Source: a virus. From it: a stretch of DNA of 64,000 nucleotides. A program made the position numbers and the translations under genes. Of this stretch, positions 1,306-8,399 are shown one piece after another. Positions within the stretch are counted from its first letter, which is position 1, and each line of letters starts with the position of its first letter. Location: IMG/VR virus record IMGVR_UViG_3300030329_005813, positions 64,001 through 128,000 of that record. One strand, given 5' to 3'. A model generated the notes under the pieces. It worked only from the letters and a program-made list of their open reading frames with translations, did no database searches and was not told the origin of the DNA.

Positions 1306-3204
1306 TTATATATCAAAGGCTTTAAGCTTATTGTCGATCCTTTCATCAACATACTGGCCCATCTCTCTTCCATCAAGCAGAAACTTAATATTGTTGACAA
1401 CTTTAACGTTTGATGCTTTAGTTTGACCAGTTGCTGTTGCTGTTGGTCCCAACGTGGCAGTACCTATTTGCGCGACAGACTCATATGCTGCTGCGGAATC
1501 AAACACTGTTTTTAACATAACGCTTTTGGCAACAGGTAACTCAGTTATAGCAGCTGCCAACTGGGAGACTCCAGAGCTGGCTTTTATAAATTGATCACCG
1601 GATAGTTCAGCCAAAGAACCAGTCAGGTCAGACATAGCATATACAAGAAGTGCTATAGCGCCAGTTGCAATCGCAACGCCTGCTCCAATTGCCAACATAA
1701 CAACTGCTAGTGGTCCTAAGGCTGGTGCGGCCGCACCCAATGCGGTAAGCCCCGCTGCAAGGCCCCCACCACCAGCAGCTGCTGCACCAAGGCCAAGACC
1801 AGAAAATACTTTTACAAGTAACATTCCTGCTGCACCAAGACCTAACATTACTCCAATTGTTTTCCGAATTGGTTCGGGCAGGTTATTAACAAGGTCTAAA
1901 ATAAACTTGAAACCTTGCACAACTGGTAGCATTGTTACCGCAAACGCCTTCATTGTTTGGTCTAGTTCTTCCATAACAGAATTAAATTCTCTATTTTGAT
2001 TCGCTAAATCTAAATACTGCTGTTGATTCATTTCGGCCGAGCCGGCTAGGTGATCAAAATTTCCGGCCATCACAAGAGCCAGTTCGCCGGCGTCTTTAAG
2101 GCCCATTGCCGAAGCAATTGCTTGACGCTCATAATACTCCATATCATCAAAGCTTTTTCCAGCATCCAATACTGCACCTTGAAGCATTCGCATACGCTCA
2201 ATAGGATCTGTTGTGGAAACCATCTCTATTGTATTTAAAAATGGTCCTCCCAGAAGGGCGTTTAGTTCACCAACAGATTTAGCTGCCGAATCAAACTGAT
2301 CAAACTGTTCAATAATAGATATAAGTTGACCAAGTTCTATATTGCTTTTGTGAGCCGAGACTGCTAAATCTAGAAATACGTCAACCGACTGATCACCAAA
2401 CTTCATCATTGTGCTGCGATGTTGTTCAAACTGCCCTAATATTTTTGAGGTTGGCAGGCCAGCATCCTGTAAAAAATTAAACATTCCGGCCTGGAGGTTG
2501 CTGGCTGCTTCGGCACTCATATTCATTCCAGCGGTCATTAAGCCCAAGTTTGCACTGAGGTCAAAAGCACCACCAGTAAATTTATCTAGAACCGCGTTTG
2601 TATTTGCTATAGATTCTTGCTGACTAGCACTTAAATCGGTAAATTGTCCAAAGTTATTGGCCAGATCAGTATAAGATTGGCCCACTTGTCCTACCGAAAC
2701 CCCGAGGCCTCGCAGAGCGCTTTCACTGTTGGCCATCTGATCGGCAAATTTACTAGCCATTCCAGTTGATTTATTAAAAGCTACCGTGGCCTCATCTAAA
2801 GCCGTAGTAAGACTCAAGCTTGTTTGAATCATACTTGTCGTTAGGGAGCCAAGTGTATTGACGGCAACACCAGCTGCTGCACTACTTTTTTCTATTTTTC
2901 CTATGGCATCCGAATAAAGAGCAGCACCAACGGAACCCGATTTCCATTTCGAGCTAATACCAGTAAGAGCATCTGAGACTGCTTCTAAAGTGTCTAATAG
3001 GTCTGTATTGGCTTCTGAAACTTTATTAAGGGCTTCCTCTTGTGCTTTAAGCTCTTGATTAAGTCTAAAGCTGGCTTTAGCAAAATCTTCAGCCGACATC
3101 TCAGTTTCATCATAAGTTTCTTTAAGAAGTCGTAGCTCTTTTTGAATTTCTGCTATTCTAGCAAGTCGTTGGATTTCTTGTTCTTTTTTTGGTCCGTTAG
3201 CCAT
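1306..3204 (-). CDS. tape measure protein
   Basis: 632 aa, helical and Ala/Leu/Ser-rich with Gly/Ala hydrophobic stretches near the C-terminus; downstream of tube and chaperone. Confidence 0.75.
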   Translation of the reverse strand: MANGPKKEQEIQRLARIAEIQKELRLLKETYDETEMSAEDFAKASFRLNQELKAQEEALNKVSEANTDLLDTLEAVSDALTGISSKWKSGSVGAALYSDAIGKIEKSSAAAGVAVNTLGSLTTSMIQTSLSLTTALDEATVAFNKSTGMASKFADQMANSESALRGLGVSVGQVGQSYTDLANNFGQFTDLSASQQESIANTNAVLDKFTGGAFDLSANLGLMTAGMNMSAEAASNLQAGMFNFLQDAGLPTSKILGQFEQHRSTMMKFGDQSVDVFLDLAVSAHKSNIELGQLISIIEQFDQFDSAAKSVGELNALLGGPFLNTIEMVSTTDPIERMRMLQGAVLDAGKSFDDMEYYERQAIASAMGLKDAGELALVMAGNFDHLAGSAEMNQQQYLDLANQNREFNSVMEELDQTMKAFAVTMLPVVQGFKFILDLVNNLPEPIRKTIGVMLGLGAAGMLLVKVFSGLGLGAAAAGGGGLAAGLTALGAAAPALGPLAVVMLAIGAGVAIATGAIALLVYAMSDLTGSLAELSGDQFIKASSGVSQLAAAITELPVAKSVMLKTVFDSAAAYESVAQIGTATLGPTATATGQTKASNVKVVNNIKFLLDGREMGQYVDERIDNKLKAFDI

Positions 3205-3214
3205 TTAAACTCTC

Positions 3215-3559
3215 CTATTTAAACGGCCATATGAGACCAGTAACTTTTTCAAAACTTTTAACTGCACTATCAAGTTTTGCTTTGTTTTTATAAGTTCTGG
3301 GATTGTCTAATCCATAATCTCTTGCTGTTTTAATATATTTGGCTTCGCTGCCCAAAGCATTTTGAAAAGATTTAATTTCTCTTGGTGTGCCACGAACTTT
3401 AAGATTCATAGAAATAAAATTTGTACCAAACATATTATCCAATACCAATTTAATTCTTGAACCAAAAGAAGACCAATAATCTTCATTAAGTTTATTTGAC
3501 CTCAGATCTTCGAAATCAATTACTACTTCTTCTAGCTTATCTTCATTAAGGTTTTGCAT
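3215..3559 (-). CDS. hypothetical protein
   Basis: 114-aa ORF with GGGG RBS and ACTATTTA motif upstream. Confidence 0.65.
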   Translation of the reverse strand: MQNLNEDKLEEVVIDFEDLRSNKLNEDYWSSFGSRIKLVLDNMFGTNFISMNLKVRGTPREIKSFQNALGSEAKYIKTARDYGLDNPRTYKNKAKLDSAVKSFEKVTGLIWPFK

Positions 3560-3583
3560 TGTAACAGTTCCCCTATCATATGA

Positions 3584-3595: not shown

Positions 3596-3631
3596 AAAAA
3601 GAAATAAGGCTGAAAGTCTTCACTTTCAGCC
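3596..3631 (-). terminator. rho-independent terminator
   Basis: GGCTGAAAGT-GAAG-ACTTTCAGCC perfect 10-bp stem followed by TTATTTCTTTTT on the minus strand. Confidence 0.8.
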
Positions 3632-3632
3632 C

Positions 3633-3869
3633 TTAGCTACCACGTTGTGGTCCGGCCGGTGGGCCGTCGCCAACTTCGTATGTTTGACTGCCCTTGGAGG
3701 CTTTTTCCATTTGTTCTTTTTCTCTTGTTAGTTGGTCGGCCAATCTTTGCAAAAACCATCTTCGGATTGTAACTGGAAGATTATAGGCTTCTGTAAAACT
3801 CCACCCACCGTGATATTTTAATAAAAAGAACTCTTCATAAACGTTTGCTATGTATTCATTGCTTAGGCC
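3633..3869 (-). CDS. unannotated 78-aa gp51-like / tail-chaperone C-terminal frame, probably expressed by ribosomal frameshift from the upstream gene
   Basis: Open frame GLSNEYIANVYEEFFLLKYHGGWSFTEAYNLPVTIRRWFLQRLADQLTREKEQMEK...GS*; no ATG/GTG/TTG before the conserved-looking core; begins right after a T7 run at 3870-3876. Confidence 0.75.
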   Translation of the reverse strand, partial: GLSNEYIANVYEEFFLLKYHGGWSFTEAYNLPVTIRRWFLQRLADQLTREKEQMEKASKGSQTYEVGDGPPAGPQRGS

Positions 3870-4704
3870 AAAAAAAGTCCGCTGTAAACGGAACGGTCAC
3901 CTCCTGCTCAAATCCACAAGAGCCGCAACTATATGTTTGCGTCATATCTACATTAGGAACAACTTTTTCATAAGCTGTCCTAAGGTATCTAGAATCTCTC
4001 GCTGGTAAGCCGTTAATGAATGTCTGGATGGACTTAGAGTCTGTATGACCGTTAACTGAAACAATTAACATTCTTAATTGATCTGTTAGGCTTGACTCTG
4101 GAAGACCTCTTTTCTTTTTATTGGCAAGATGCTTGGCCAAGTATATCTCATCTTTACTGGTTAGCAATCGCACTTCAACATCCACCTTGGTCTGTGGAAG
4201 TGTAATTAAAAACCGATCATCGGAATGCTTCTTGATGGCAAAGTCTTCCCACTCGTTGCCGGCATATACATTTAGCTTTGACAGATCATATGAAAAGTCT
4301 GAAGTTGTAGTGCAGGCTGGGCAGGTTGTTTTTGTCCTATATTCTTCGCCATATCCTGTAATGCGTGCAGCAACAAGGATTGCGTTTTTATCGCCGATAT
4401 ATAATGTATTTGTATCAATTGAACGATCAACAAATATATTTTGTAGAAAACGCTCAATCGCCAAACCTTTCTTTAAAAGTGTTTTGGACGAAAGAATGTC
4501 TTCATCTTTGGCAGTCATATACCGAATTTCAACTTGGCTTACGCCATGAAGTGGATGTCCTTCGGGATAATACTGACCACCAGTAGGCAATTCAACGAAC
4601 TCTGTTGGCGTTGAAAAAGAAAAAGTAGCCTCCGATGGGCCGGTGGTAGGAACTGGATCAGCGGCTGGACGTGCGCTGAGGCGATCCTGATTATTTCTAC
4701 TCAA
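3856..4704 (-). CDS. baseplate hub assembly / tail assembly chaperone (T4 gp26-like)
   Basis: VELPTGG.YYP, IRYMTAKDEDIL, GDKNAILVAARITGYG, two CxxC (CPAC, CGSC), C-terminal FFWP; between tube and tape measure. Confidence 0.75.
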   Translation of the reverse strand: MSRNNQDRLSARPAADPVPTTGPSEATFSFSTPTEFVELPTGGQYYPEGHPLHGVSQVEIRYMTAKDEDILSSKTLLKKGLAIERFLQNIFVDRSIDTNTLYIGDKNAILVAARITGYGEEYRTKTTCPACTTTSDFSYDLSKLNVYAGNEWEDFAIKKHSDDRFLITLPQTKVDVEVRLLTSKDEIYLAKHLANKKKRGLPESSLTDQLRMLIVSVNGHTDSKSIQTFINGLPARDSRYLRTAYEKVVPNVDMTQTYSCGSCGFEQEVTVPFTADFFWPKQ

Positions 4705-4742: not shown

Positions 4743-5312
4743 TTATCCGGTTGGATTAAGCTTGAAGAAGTCGTTTGTCGGGCCGGCAATACCGCTAGCT
4801 GGGTTCGCCGTAACACAATCAGCCCAATCGTATCGGAAAGTTAATGTAATTTCAACCAAACCATCTTGGTCGTATGCTAGGTCCGAATAGCTTACATTAG
4901 TAATAAAAGCTCCGTTAAGAGTCCAAGATTCTATGACTGCTCCATCAGACTGAATCATCTGAATCACAACACCGCCCAAAGCACTAACAGCGCTAGCTTT
5001 TGAGATAGTGGTGGTCTCTGTAAAGTTTCCAGGCGGTTTATAGCCAGCCCCCTGAATAATTGAAAGAGTGTTGGCTAATGCATCCGGAGAAACCGGGTCG
5101 ACCATAGTAACATCCACTGTGTTCCAGGTGACACGTCCGGGATAGTAAAAAGTATGGTTTAAAAACGCATGCTCTGAATGGTTAATCTCAAAGCTAGGTT
5201 TTTGTGCGCTTTTTGCAAACCACTGGGCTCCATCTGGCAAGTTACCTATAGTGACTAGAAATCTATATTGTCTTTTCGGATCCTGTCCAGTTGAGTCAGT
5301 CCAGAATGGCAT
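4743..5312 (-). CDS. tail tube protein (T4 gp19-like)
   Basis: PKRQYRF, YYPGRVTWNTVDVT, ESWTLNGAFIT, LTFRYDWA; directly downstream of sheath. Confidence 0.85.
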   Translation of the reverse strand: MPFWTDSTGQDPKRQYRFLVTIGNLPDGAQWFAKSAQKPSFEINHSEHAFLNHTFYYPGRVTWNTVDVTMVDPVSPDALANTLSIIQGAGYKPPGNFTETTTISKASAVSALGGVVIQMIQSDGAVIESWTLNGAFITNVSYSDLAYDQDGLVEITLTFRYDWADCVTANPASGIAGPTNDFFKLNPTG

Positions 5313-5378: not shown

Positions 5379-8300
5379 TTAGTCGTCAAAAGAAGCGCCG
5401 GTGCGAGTAATCACAAAGTCAATCGCGATGTATTCGATAGCGCGGGCTGGTTTCAAGAAGATCTTGGCGTACAAGATATTTCTATCAATTAAATCTGGGG
5501 TTGTCGTTGTCTCGTCGAGAACAATCTTATACTCCGTTATTCCAAGTCTAGTCTGCACACTGGCCAAGAACGGGTCCACCTTGTTAATGAATCGAGTCCA
5601 AGTGGCCTGCACATTTTGGTCGAACAGGATCGTTGCAGCCATATAGGAAACTTCTTTCTTCAAGAAGATCATAAGGCGCCGAACATTAATTCTGTCTAGA
5701 GCCGATGGCGTAATCTGAAGTGTCTTCTGTCCGAAGACTACGATGCCTTCGGCCGGGAACTCGGCGATGGGGTTAATATTTGCTGTGTAGAGTCTATCAC
5801 GGTCCTTTCTAATCACTCGCTCGGAGACGCGTGTGACCGGAAGTCCACCAGCGCCATCAGTCAAACCACCTCTTGTAAAGCCAGCAGGCGCAAACCAAAC
5901 TTCTGATTTGGCTTCGGAGCTAGCATATGTTCCAAGCGCGATGACAGAGGGCGGTACCCAAAGAGTCTTAGCAGTATTAGGATCACGAACCTGAACCCAA
6001 GGATAGTACGTTGCAGCGTAGCTAGAGTTTAAGTCTCTGGTTCTCAAAGAATTAATAGCGCTAGTTACAGTACCCAGGTTGGCCTGAAATGATTTTGTGT
6101 TTTCCGTGAAGGGCTCATAGACATCTTCGATATCGATGACGGCCATAGCATCAGCGCGGGCCTCGCACGTATCAATAAGGTGCTTGGTGAGGTTCTTGGC
6201 AGTCAGACCAGGGATAGTCATCAAGTTAGTCTCAACAAACTCAGGATCGGCACAAGTATCAATTGCTCGCTTAACACTATTAAATGCATAGTTGTTATAC
6301 TGAGTATCTGTGGAAACTATTCTAGTATTTCTAAAAGGCTCTGCTTCGAAGATGTCAAAGCCATCAAAACCACCATACAGAGGCGAGGTAAACCGGTCAT
6401 AACCTTCAGTTAAAATCTGCTTATAAGAAGAACTCATAGCCGTAAGCGAGTCGCCATCTCTTCTAGAACCAGACTGAAAGAACGCAGACGGCGCGATATC
6501 GCCATCAATAACAGTTCTCACGTCGTCCAATGAAAAGACCCAAGAATACGCACGGTCAGTTGGTGGGCCGGCTAAAGTATCAACCTGTCCATAACCAGCT
6601 GGAAGGCGACGAAGATAGTCAGGATAGCCAGGATCGTAGTTCGCGTCTGTGTGCGACTTGCCTGTCTGAAGGCCAAAGTAGGCCTCCTTGGGGTCGCCCA
6701 TAGTACCGTCAGAAGCTGAGATTCGGAATAAAGTTCTTGGAAACTCATAGGATGCCGTGTACTGTGAGCAGCCGGTGGCGCCTTGATCCGAATGGACAAA
6801 GCTCTGCGGTCCATGCCTATCGTTATGAGATGCAACAAAGTCCTTGTCAAAACAGACGAAAGAAGAGCCAAGCTGCACACCTGCATTAAAATCAGTATTA
6901 TAAATCTGGGTGGCAGTTGCAACGGTTTTGTCTTGATTTCCAACATTTGTTTTGATTTGAATTCCGGTAGGTCGAATGGGTCCAAAGACGCCGAACGGAA
7001 GAAGCTCAGAATCAGACATTTGGCCCTGGGCAACAGCAGGGTTCATTTCAATTCTTACATACCTGGACTGGTTGACAAACTCACCATACTCACGAAGGCG
7101 ATTTGTTGAATAATCAAAGGCCATATACATATCACCAACTTTTGCAGCAACATAGTCGGCTGAAGCCGGATTTAAACTACAGTTAGTAAATTGCTCTAAG
7201 ATATCAAGTTTGTTGTCGCGATCTGATGCTTTTCTAATTTGTACTGTAAATGAACCAAACGGGTTAGATAAACTGGTCGGAGCCTTAATGTCAGCAATAG
7301 AAATCTTAATATTATTTTGCAACCACTCTCCGCTGTCCAAGCCGTGAAACTTAAACAACTTAGTCATACGCTCGGCGGCGTAGTGTGTATTATCGGTTGA
7401 AAGATCCTGTGAGAAGAACCAACCGGTTTCAGGATTCTTGAATCCCTCGCGGTGATCTTCATACCCGACAACGATACTACCGGATGAATTTTCAAAAGAT
7501 CCACTTGACAGTGGCGCGATAAATCCATAAGATTCGCCAGAGGTACCGCAAACATTAAACAAGTGGCTTTCAAAAGTTTCACCAAGAAAGTAATTACCCC
7601 TGCCTTCCGTAACAGTCGTTGAATCAACAACACTAGTGTTGGTAAGGATTGGATCGGTGTTGAAAACCTTGCGAATGTAGTTTTCTGAGTTCCTATCAAA
7701 ATTAAATTTTGTGGTATAAAGCGGGCTATATGACGTATCTAAAATTTGAGCCTGGAAGGTGTAGCTGGAGTCTTCGGAGTTAATCATAACAGCAGCGCCC
7801 GTAACAGCAGACACATCGGACTGGGGTTGTGAAGAAGCTTGCTTACCTTTAAGAACAATTGCTCCGTCTCGTATATACCAAACAGCTGCCAGAGAGCCAG
7901 TACCTAGTGAGACATCAGGACCAATATTGCCTGATGGGACAATAAATAAACCATAAGCACCACCATTATCGCTAAGTGTTTCCGATGGATTCTTAGCAGT
8001 TCCGGCGGCTGTTTCTGTTCCGGTTGTTGTTGTCCAGCCAGCTTGACCAGCGGTCGTGGCTTGATCGTGCTCATCACCAAGAAGACGAAAAATGTTTGCA
8101 GGAGCCACGCCGGCATTCAACCAAGCAAAAGCAGCGTAAGCAGCATACGTTGGACCGGTCTTATTTCCTTCACGCCAAGTATCACCAGAAGAAGCACCAG
8201 GGATTGGATTACCAAATGTCTCAACAAATTCAGCCAAAGAGCTAACCTTGTAAGGTCTCATCGCCGGACCTTGTGCATATCGTCCGATAATCGTTGGTCC

Positions 8301-8399
8301 CATAGCATCGGGAAGTCTTGGTAACTGTGAGTTATCAACTTCGCGAAGGAAGATGCCCGGGGATACGAATCTAAACTTTCTAGCTAATGATGATGACAT
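5379..8399 (-). CDS. contractile tail sheath protein (T4 gp18-like)
   Basis: FVSPGIFLREVD N-terminus; YAATYYPWVQ, WFAPAGFTRGGL, INPIAEFP, FGQKTLQ, LDRINVRRL, KPARAIEYIAIDF C-terminal sheath motifs. Confidence 0.95.
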   Translation of the reverse strand: MSSSLARKFRFVSPGIFLREVDNSQLPRLPDAMGPTIIGRYAQGPAMRPYKVSSLAEFVETFGNPIPGASSGDTWREGNKTGPTYAAYAAFAWLNAGVAPANIFRLLGDEHDQATTAGQAGWTTTTGTETAAGTAKNPSETLSDNGGAYGLFIVPSGNIGPDVSLGTGSLAAVWYIRDGAIVLKGKQASSQPQSDVSAVTGAAVMINSEDSSYTFQAQILDTSYSPLYTTKFNFDRNSENYIRKVFNTDPILTNTSVVDSTTVTEGRGNYFLGETFESHLFNVCGTSGESYGFIAPLSSGSFENSSGSIVVGYEDHREGFKNPETGWFFSQDLSTDNTHYAAERMTKLFKFHGLDSGEWLQNNIKISIADIKAPTSLSNPFGSFTVQIRKASDRDNKLDILEQFTNCSLNPASADYVAAKVGDMYMAFDYSTNRLREYGEFVNQSRYVRIEMNPAVAQGQMSDSELLPFGVFGPIRPTGIQIKTNVGNQDKTVATATQIYNTDFNAGVQLGSSFVCFDKDFVASHNDRHGPQSFVHSDQGATGCSQYTASYEFPRTLFRISASDGTMGDPKEAYFGLQTGKSHTDANYDPGYPDYLRRLPAGYGQVDTLAGPPTDRAYSWVFSLDDVRTVIDGDIAPSAFFQSGSRRDGDSLTAMSSSYKQILTEGYDRFTSPLYGGFDGFDIFEAEPFRNTRIVSTDTQYNNYAFNSVKRAIDTCADPEFVETNLMTIPGLTAKNLTKHLIDTCEARADAMAVIDIEDVYEPFTENTKSFQANLGTVTSAINSLRTRDLNSSYAATYYPWVQVRDPNTAKTLWVPPSVIALGTYASSEAKSEVWFAPAGFTRGGLTDGAGGLPVTRVSERVIRKDRDRLYTANINPIAEFPAEGIVVFGQKTLQITPSALDRINVRRLMIFLKKEVSYMAATILFDQNVQATWTRFINKVDPFLASVQTRLGITEYKIVLDETTTTPDLIDRNILYAKIFLKPARAIEYIAIDFVITRTGASFDD

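Follow-up and report, generated by a model that had tools for sequence, protein, structure and literature searches.

How is a reading frame expressed that is conserved, follows a phage tail-assembly gene and has no start codon of its own? The question is raised by a locus on the minus strand of a 64,000-nucleotide (nt) stretch of DNA, positions 64,001 to 128,000 of the IMG/VR record IMGVR_UViG_3300030329_005813. This whole stretch is called the window here, and coordinates refer to it unless stated otherwise. The record is 172 kb long and ~95% complete, and it comes from an uncultured marine T4-like phage. A 282-codon gene of the gp26/gp51 family carries a run of seven T (T7) close to its 3′ end, and a further 78 codons are open in the +1 frame behind this run. 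We consider it probable, though some way from secure, that this tail-assembly gene gives a short and a long form by a ribosomal +1 slip at UUU followed by a pyrimidine (UUU_Y), aided by an RNA hairpin.

The junction

The elements of the junction are as follows.

3856–4704, minus strand: zero-frame gene, short form of 282 amino acids (aa), PF12322 tail/hub assembly chaperone family
3878–3892, minus strand: GC-rich RNA hairpin TCCGTT-TAC-AGCGGA, flagged by a terminator scan
3868–3876, minus strand: putative shift site UUU UUU UGG (Phe-Phe-Trp in frame 0; UUU UUU GGC when shifted)
3633–3869, minus strand: extension in the +1 frame, 78 codons and TAA, lacking its own start codon, Gp51_C-like
3596–3633, minus strand: intrinsic terminator, a 12-bp stem followed by ATTTCTTTTT, directly 3′ of the stop codon of the extension

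The 3′ end of the 282-codon gene reads GCG GAC TTT TTT TGG CCT AAG CAA TGA. T7 lies at 3870–3876 and the frame-0 stop is the TGA at 3856–3858. In the +1 frame the same letters read ACT TTT TTT GGC CTA AGC AAT GAA TAC.. and are translated as FFGLSNEYIANVYEEFF... This frame is open for 78 codons from GGC onwards (3636–3869) and stops at the TAA at 3633–3635. It is closed upstream by an in-frame TGA at 3897–3899, and its first ATG, GTG or TTG comes 48 codons into the 87-codon open stretch, well within the conserved core. The predicted long form has 278 + 78 = 356 aa.

A preliminary description made from the letters alone had drawn attention to the T7 run leading into a start-less 78-codon frame, to the immediate stop in the −1 frame and to a terminator at the end of the extension. 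All of its sequence statements proved correct when checked. The −1 frame reads TTG GCC TAA, and a 12-bp hairpin with a T-tract is found at 3633–3606. A canonical −1 shift on an X_XXY_YYZ heptamer of the lambda type does not fit this arrangement, since the extension is in the +1 frame and the −1 frame stops.

Conservation of the +1 register

When viral contigs were scanned with the 282-aa protein, >593 relatives were obtained. We kept 80 loci with 49–70% identity, which gave 70 distinct junctions and are called the window clade here. The extension is in the +1 frame in 69 of these 70, and the conserved downstream peptide of the clade is ..GLxDxYIExVYExFFxLKYHGGWSFxEAYNLPVxxRxWF... A second clade around Flavobacterium phage immuto has ~35% protein identity to the window clade and has the extension in +1 in all 58 junctions. 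The same register is found in five phages of Listeria, Bacillus, Streptococcus or their relatives (Firmicutes) and in an uncultured 484-kb phage. Microcystis phage Mel-JY01 has the +1 register with an identical TTTTTTTGGCCTAAG, and immuto carries TTTCTTTGG. Such conservation of the T-run and of the register across homologues had been suggested as a check in the preliminary description; T7 itself is kept in 62/67 related contigs. As judged from these alignments, the junction arrangement is far beyond chance.

A homopolymer indel, which had been named as a possible source of the broken frame, does not account for it: contigs of two independent DNA (metagenome) studies cross T7 without gaps, so the run is not a homopolymer or assembly error. 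The metagenome runs were compared as assembled contigs, and the sole RNA contig, of 165 nt, maps elsewhere in the gene. No in-frame fusion of chaperone and extension was found among close relatives; the search returned two junk matches on contigs <1.1 kb.

One relative narrows the site of the frame change. In the locus L035 the +1 frame is closed by a TAG that immediately precedes ACT TTT TTT GGC, and the change must therefore occur within the ~20 nt that hold the T-run.

Over 3862–3894 alone, that is, over the hairpin and the T-run, the summed depth of contigs increases 3- to 25-fold in three metagenomes of marine or estuary origin. Many contigs of other strains match only a ~33-nt island there. 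By this comparison of contigs, no other nucleotide island of the region is as conserved as 3862–3894.

Change of the selected frame at the T-run

Upstream of the T-run, the entropy of the three codon positions is 0.96/0.76/1.51 in frame 0; downstream of it, the values are 0.73/0.46/1.36 in the +1 frame. The two frames overlap for 15 nt after the run. Here the values are 0.61/0.46/1.19 in the +1 frame versus 0.85/0.61/0.46 in frame 0, and only the +1 frame has coding periodicity. Substitutions of GGC by GGT or GGA and of CTA by CTC are silent in the +1 frame, and turn the frame-0 Pro into Ser or Thr. On these codon statistics, the T-run is exactly where selection passes from frame 0 to frame +1.

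The codons of the site itself are nearly constant. The second Phe codon is TTT in 67/67 junctions and the A-site codon is TGG in 67/67; the first Phe codon is TTT in 62/67 and TTC in 5/67. For comparison, a conserved Phe four codons upstream is encoded by TTT in 37 and by TTC in 17 sequences, and the background Phe usage is 76–78% TTT. Variants of the junction read TTC TTT TGG, TTT CTT TGG, TTT CTA TGG, TTT CTT TAC, TTC TTT CGT and AAC TTT CTA. The sole feature that they have in common is an in-frame UUU followed by a pyrimidine, which is present in every junction of the three +1 clades examined.

A hairpin upstream of the proposed slip site

The preliminary description gave the junction correctly and overlooked a conserved hairpin directly 5′ of the T-run. 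In the window this hairpin (3878–3892) sits one base 5′ of T7. The 24 nt upstream of the run have a mean minimum free energy (MFE) of −5.67 kcal/mol in the window clade, compared with −2.32 ± 0.20 after resampling of synonymous codons and −3.55 ± 0.25 for shuffled letters of the same composition. In the immuto clade, also +1, the mean MFE is −4.23 kcal/mol, compared with −2.97 ± 0.26 for resampled synonymous codons. A cyanophage clade with the extension in the −1 frame gives no hairpin signal (−0.98 kcal/mol versus −1.39 for resampled synonymous codons). By this measure both +1 clades show selection for the hairpin, and the −1 cyanophage clade lacks it.

The 3′ end of the hairpin is 0–4 nt from the T-run in 64/67 junctions. 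Its region forms a local GC island, with 55% GC compared with 34% downstream. The stems differ among subclades, for example GGCGGTT/GACCGCC, GCCC/GGGC and TCCGC/GCGGA. The immuto clade has a hairpin of its own (CCCAATTGGGG and variants), also in members that have TTTCTTT or TTTCTAT. Interruption of the run does not remove the hairpin: the mean MFE is −4.8 for TTTCTTT (25 junctions) together with TTTCTAT (3), and −6.7 for TTCTTTT. Both +1 clades have the same geometry, in which the hairpin is followed by 1 nt, the E-site codon and UUU_Y in the P site.

Proposed mechanism and alternatives

We infer that the shift is made by the ribosome. The majority of ribosomes would terminate at the TGA at 3856–3858 and give the 282-aa short form. 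In a minority, peptidyl-tRNA-Phe on the second UUU of GAC UUU UUU UGG would shift by +1. The tRNA-Phe would re-pair with the UUU one base downstream, GGC would become the next codon and 78 codons more would be read. The outcome would be a 356-aa long form, ..ADFF-GLSNEY.., with a small helical Gp51_C-like domain at its end. The E site would then hold a weak UUU codon, and the hairpin would end one base ahead of the E-site codon. In this position it may act like the internal Shine-Dalgarno (SD) duplex of prfB and favour forward slippage. By analogy with gpG/gpGT of lambda, the tape measure would have both forms as binding partners, and a component of the tube or hub would be brought in by the extension that the rare long form carries.

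Several points weigh against a hairpin-aided ribosomal slip. UUU-UGG is not avoided elsewhere in the genome (17 TTT-TGG versus 6 TTC-TGG), and hence the bare site is not expected to be very efficient. We looked for a conserved RNA structure 3′ of the site and found none (alifold energy 0.0). Covariation inside one fixed helix register is weak. The hairpins here have 4–8 bp, and the hairpin known to stimulate a +1 shift has a 12-bp stem and was used at a CUU_UGA site without RF2 (PMC6321510). Mutation of UUU-UGG in yopN of Yersinia, a proposed site of this kind, did not abolish the hybrid protein (PMC3789692). Intrinsic terminators and hairpin-dependent slippage of RNA polymerase also share this geometry, a hairpin followed immediately by U7.

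The phage genome encodes seven tRNAs (Lys-UUU, Ser-UGA, Leu-UAA, Met, Thr-UGU, Arg-UCU and Ile-UAU). Among them are no Phe, Trp or Gly tRNA and no odd tRNA able to read four bases. Together with the lack of a conserved downstream structure and of avoidance of UUU-UGG, this suggests a low shift efficiency, as in lambda. An SD-like GGAG 28–36 nt upstream, present in about half of the sequences, was considered as a stimulator and rejected; it is too distant and is explained by Glu codons.

The main alternative, less probable but serious, is hairpin-dependent transcriptional slippage, which the preliminary description did not name. Formed immediately behind the RNA polymerase as it copies T7, the nascent hairpin would melt the upstream portion of the weak rU:dA hybrid. 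The transcript would realign forward by one base, and the resulting fraction of U6 mRNAs would encode the same 356 aa by ordinary translation. The anatomy is terminator-like, with a GC-rich hairpin so close to U7 in nearly all junctions, and the stable stem-loop that the IS630 type requires just 5′ of its slippage motif is present. The account of the Roseiflexus IS630 element given in PMC5009743 (Penno et al. 2015) provides a precedent. Such slippage would explain why all seven T are kept in 62/67 contigs and why the register is +1, because the deletion of one base is equivalent to +1; an inserted U would be harmless, since the −1 frame ends at once. However, the hairpins are equally present at the interrupted runs TTTCTTT, TTTCTAT and TTCTTTT, where realignment of the polymerase needs an rC:dA mismatch that has been termed inviable in a review. 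This persistence favours the ribosomal reading, and so does the equal spacing between hairpin and UUU_Y in two clades with unrelated stems. In addition, some members of the second clade have T7 without a hairpin, and T7 is short, polymerase slippage being efficient at runs of 9.

That the extension forms a small gene in its own right, a short gp51 made by a non-canonical start or by reinitiation and never fused to the chaperone, appears improbable. Some relatives do have starts (a TTG in Mel-JY01, an internal ATG in HSE3 gp075 and an ATG within TAATG in Pseudomonas phage Cygsa01), and the cyanophage "gp51" has been annotated as a short gene (PMC3037559). The preliminary description would have given up the frameshift if homologues had proved to carry an ordinary start codon and ribosome-binding site. 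What we find is that the +1 frame has no ATG, GTG or TTG ahead of the frame-0 stop in 17/70 junctions, namely the window and 16 others, and that the starts of the remaining junctions lie at scattered positions. No conserved ribosome-binding site precedes the invariant residues of the extension. The invariant residues G1, L2 and Y6 lie 5′ of the frame-0 stop and likewise of any point at which translation could restart, and a separate gene would not need a conserved +1 register relative to the gene upstream.

The preliminary description had left the direction of the slip as +1 or −2. In a −2 ribosomal shift on T7, tRNA-Phe would move back two bases and the junction would gain an extra Phe (..DFFFGL..). 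T7 permits perfect re-pairing two bases back, and tail chaperones of the phage Mu type have been proposed to use −2. But TTC TTT TGG (5/67), TTT CTT TGG and TTT CTA TGG cannot re-pair in this way and still keep the same register; they retain only the in-frame UUU_Y. From these variants a +1 shift is much more likely, and the −2 half of the earlier proposal is very improbable.

Almost no credence can be given to an unexpressed downstream frame (a relic, or a hairpin and U7 serving as a mere internal terminator or pause site): the terminator scan does class the hairpin and T7 as terminator-like, but the extension is under strong purifying selection with periodicity in the +1 frame, has 13 invariant residues in 61 sequences, 3389 sequence clusters and a confident fold, and is followed directly after its stop codon by a real terminator.

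The chaperone and its extension

The preliminary description called the upstream protein a gp26-like chaperone, and this holds. The 282-aa protein matches Pfam PF12322 (T4_baseplate) with E 1.2e-14 and 54.9 bits (cut-off 24.5) over profile positions 7–219 of 219, and phrog_150 "baseplate hub" with E 8.5e-16. T4 gp26 and gp51 match the same PF12322 model. By its sequence the protein is a clear member of this gp26/gp51 family, and its gene lies between the tube and tape-measure genes.

The two parts of the long form were folded separately with AlphaFold2 (AF2). The model of the 282-aa protein has a predicted local distance difference test score (pLDDT) of 86. When this model was compared with 48,161 chains, the top three matches were 3fgx_B (Z 6.1), 2ob9_B (Z 5.5) and YqbN 3klu_A (Z 5.2), all values of Z <8, which can reflect a common arrangement. 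All three lie on model residues ~20–128. The protein 2ob9_B is the tail assembly chaperone of HK97 (root-mean-square deviation, rmsd, 5.5 Å over 87 residues), and 3fgx_B is an uncharacterised protein of Bacillus stearothermophilus. The likeness of the modelled N-domain to tail assembly chaperones is suggestive. A Foldseek search of the chaperone against the Protein Data Bank gave no match at E ≤ 0.001. The residues C128, C131, C260 and C263 are invariant and form two CxxC pairs 130 residues apart. In the model these pairs come together as a putative split zinc ribbon, and zinc-ribbon proteins are found as weak structural matches (Z ~3–3.8).

The frame downstream had been called gp51-like. Here the similarity has moderate support from profiles, the ESM Atlas and the fold, and a direct family match was not found. 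In a hidden Markov model (HMM) search the extension had no direct match to phrog_634 ("baseplate hub assembly catalyst", gp51) at E ≤ 0.1. The −1 extensions of Rhizobium phage LG08, Cronobacter phage LPCS28 and Cygsa01 and the tail of T4 gp51 match phrog_634 at 4e-8 to 9e-12. With broadened core profiles, hhalign aligned the extension with gp51 tails over 51 columns at a probability of 83%, E 9.6e-6 and a score of 28.3; the maximum of 60 column shuffles was 14.6. The similarity spans the whole core, which has the same position after the FF motif. With narrow profiles (extension versus full gp51, and core versus core) nothing rose above the column shuffles, and an early hhalign score of 29 was discarded as inflated by the charged tail. 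The extension HMM had no match in 16 kb of T4.

The AF2 model of the extension has three helices (pLDDT 85) and a charged, disordered tail. At rank 3 in BFVD is the 53-aa Gp51 of Prochlorococcus phage P-HM1, with a template modelling (TM) score of 0.83, rmsd 1.3 Å over 50 columns and a probability of 0.99; its E of 0.27 is weak for so short a domain. In the ESM Atlas, the nearest named cluster to the extension homologue P0143 is PF28602 Gp51_C (0.90, 183 features). Since there is no direct match to phrog_634, we call the extension Gp51_C-like and not a member of the family. Profiles and model give moderate support for its resemblance to the C-terminal tail of gp51.

The extension (3636–3869) also has a weak Pfam match to DUF6760 (PF20546; E 2e-4, below the cut-off), and among the named Atlas clusters DUF6760 comes second in proximity, behind Gp51_C. 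In Bacillota, the DUF6760 proteins may represent domains that extend the chaperones of prophages or tail-like particles. A literature search found no paper that mentions DUF6760.

Other lineages

The same protein pair appears to be made in other ways elsewhere. Cyanophage S-PM2 has a single PF12322 gene that ends CAG TCT TTT TTC GCA TAA, with a short "gp51" in the −1 frame, and TTTTTTC is present in 59/59 related junctions of the cyanophage clade. The phages LG08 and LPCS28 have the −1 form as in S-PM2; a scan of viral contigs with the LG08 protein matched only LG08 itself. In Cygsa01, the ATG within TAATG would be the start of the extension. T4 gp26 ends at ..EFFELL, and gp51 (..DVFKLL..) continues into a ~48-aa tail. 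From these sequences, one family would arrive at the same pair of proteins through a +1 shift, a −1 shift, a separate start or two genes.

The only exception to +1 in the window clade is the locus L036 (IMGVR_UViG_3300025282_001407, 3330–3560), where the extension is in the −1 frame. It has T8 (GAT TTT TTT TGG), CCA in place of CCT, which removes the −1 TAA, a net gain of 7 nt before the core, and a weakened hairpin. Either the direction appears to have switched here from +1 to −1 on one and the same run, or this single contig contains a sequence error.

A wider reading can be offered only tentatively. The hairpin may be a natural stimulator of +1 shifts, an mRNA-only mimic of the SD duplex of prfB, so far demonstrated only with engineered hairpins. 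Lineages may have switched among four solutions, namely +1 at UUU_Y with a hairpin, −1 at U_UUU_UUC with none, initiation at a separate start codon, and duplication of the gene as in T4 gp26/gp51, and L036 would then be caught in the middle of a switch.

The tail module

The gene order on the minus strand is sheath, tube, chaperone, extension, a 114-aa open reading frame (ORF) and tape measure. The neighbours of the chaperone gene and its extension are as follows.

5379–8399, minus strand: putative tail sheath gene, 1006-aa ORF; the name rests on its place beside the tube gene
4743–5312, minus strand: tail tube gene, phrog_4542 "tail tube protein", E 8.5e-22
3215–3559, minus strand: 114-aa ORF, between the terminator of the extension and the tape-measure gene
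1306–3204, minus strand: tape-measure gene, phrog_1533 and phrog_167 "tail length tape measure protein"

Two overlapping ORFs thus lie between the tube and tape-measure genes, as in G/GT systems. The phages Mel-JY01, immuto, LIS04 and HSE3 are annotated with an identical order of the tail module. In the homologous loci of Mel-JY01, immuto and LIS04, the ORF preceding the tube gene is annotated as tail sheath. The 114-aa ORF had no family match in library scans (best E 0.04), and a promoter-like site lies just 5′ of it. Outside the window, the phage genome has a tmRNA at G000:C1:154194-154526 with the tag ANNNNHFESVRLAA.

GenBank records annotate the extension inconsistently. The ORF in the Mel-JY01 record (L001:3734-3970) starts at an upstream TTG, and HSE3 gp075 (L086:3270-3440) comprises only the part after an internal ATG. 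In the immuto record (L003:3701-3943) the extension is mostly unannotated, and only a 111-nt ORF at its 3′ end (3833–3943) is called.

Implications

The locus and its relatives indicate that the T4 lineage may follow the same chaperone-frameshift logic as other long-tailed phages. The ancestral state would be one gene of the gp26/gp51 type with a frameshifted extension, from which the two-gene form of T4 would be derived. On this view gp26 and gp51, long enigmatic, gain a function that can be tested. In the ocean the family is very abundant, the extension by itself accounting for 3389 sequence clusters, and gene callers miss or truncate the long form throughout. Three things are new here: the clade with UUU_UUU_UGG, the hairpin found upstream in the +1 clades only, and transcriptional slippage as a competing explanation. 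The locus would be a natural case of a +1 shift on a sense codon (UUU_UGG), with an upstream hairpin that is under selection. Use of +1 and −1 at the same FF motif would provide a natural comparison of how flanking structure sets the direction of frameshifting. A literature search found no published report of a frameshift in gp26/gp51 genes.

Comparison with known systems

Two systems are precedents for parts of the proposed arrangement, both with unrelated sequences. The two-gene tail chaperonin of Bacillus phage 0305phi8-36 (Hardies et al. 2007, PMC2147016) would be G/GT logic carried out by paralogous genes, and the haloarchaeal myovirus HSTV-2 (PMC5009743) has a +1 tail chaperone. The portions of these two papers that deal with them differ from the present case in mentioning no hairpin.

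In the IS630 element of Roseiflexus, as related in PMC5009743 (Penno et al. 2015), a stem-loop lies 5′-adjacent to U5C5, transcripts lack exactly one nucleotide and the features are terminator-like. The likeness to our locus is a GC-rich hairpin directly 5′ of a T-rich motif and what would here too be a one-base deletion equal to +1. The difference is that the motif there is T5C5 in a transposase gene, and that interrupted runs keep the hairpin here, which argues against polymerase slippage.

[quoted passage not shown] In that case the site is unproven and the proteins are unrelated. A closer parallel is provided by prfB, the gene of RF2, and by its hairpin mimic. When a hairpin adjoins the E site of 70S ribosomes, it promotes +1 frameshifting and weakens −1 frameshifting (Huang, Cho, Chang 2018, PMC6321510). 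As there, the P-site tRNA would slip +1 onto UUU, and the duplex ends beside the E-site codon. Here, in contrast, the A-site codon is the sense codon UGG, an mRNA hairpin takes the place of the SD:anti-SD duplex, and there is no autoregulation.

The cyanophages, represented by S-PM2, share with the window a PF12322 gene, an overlapping ORF of ~60 aa homologous to the gp51 tail and a junction at the same FF motif. They differ in that the extension is in the −1 frame after a strictly conserved T_TTT_TTC, without an upstream hairpin, and has been published as a short gene. This gp51 was noted to have only ~20% of the length of T4 gp51, and no connection to gp26 was drawn (Sullivan et al. 2010, PMC3037559).

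T4 gp26 (208 aa) and gp51 (249 aa) are hub assembly chaperones (Leiman et al. 2010, PMC3004832). They share PF12322 with the protein described here, and the EFFELL end of gp26 and the continuing tail of gp51 mirror the short and long forms. Unlike the present locus, T4 has two separate, divergently transcribed genes away from the tube gene, with no frameshift. The G-T frameshift has been described as conserved in long-tailed phages "except T4" (PMC5009743).

The system that invites the closest comparison is gpG/gpGT of lambda (Levin 1993; Xu, Hendrix, Duda 2004; reviewed in PMC5009743). The preliminary description had proposed a pair of the G/GT type. Comparison among relatives supports the main points of this proposal, and the mechanism has to be weighed against transcriptional slippage. 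The predicted shift here is +1 at UUU_UUU_UGG with an upstream hairpin, whereas lambda uses −1 at G_GGA_AAG, and the 282-aa PF12322 protein with its putative zinc ribbon is about twice the size of gpG. As in lambda, a short and a long form would have a common N-terminal part. The best structural matches of the modelled N-domain, at Z <8, include the HK97 chaperone.

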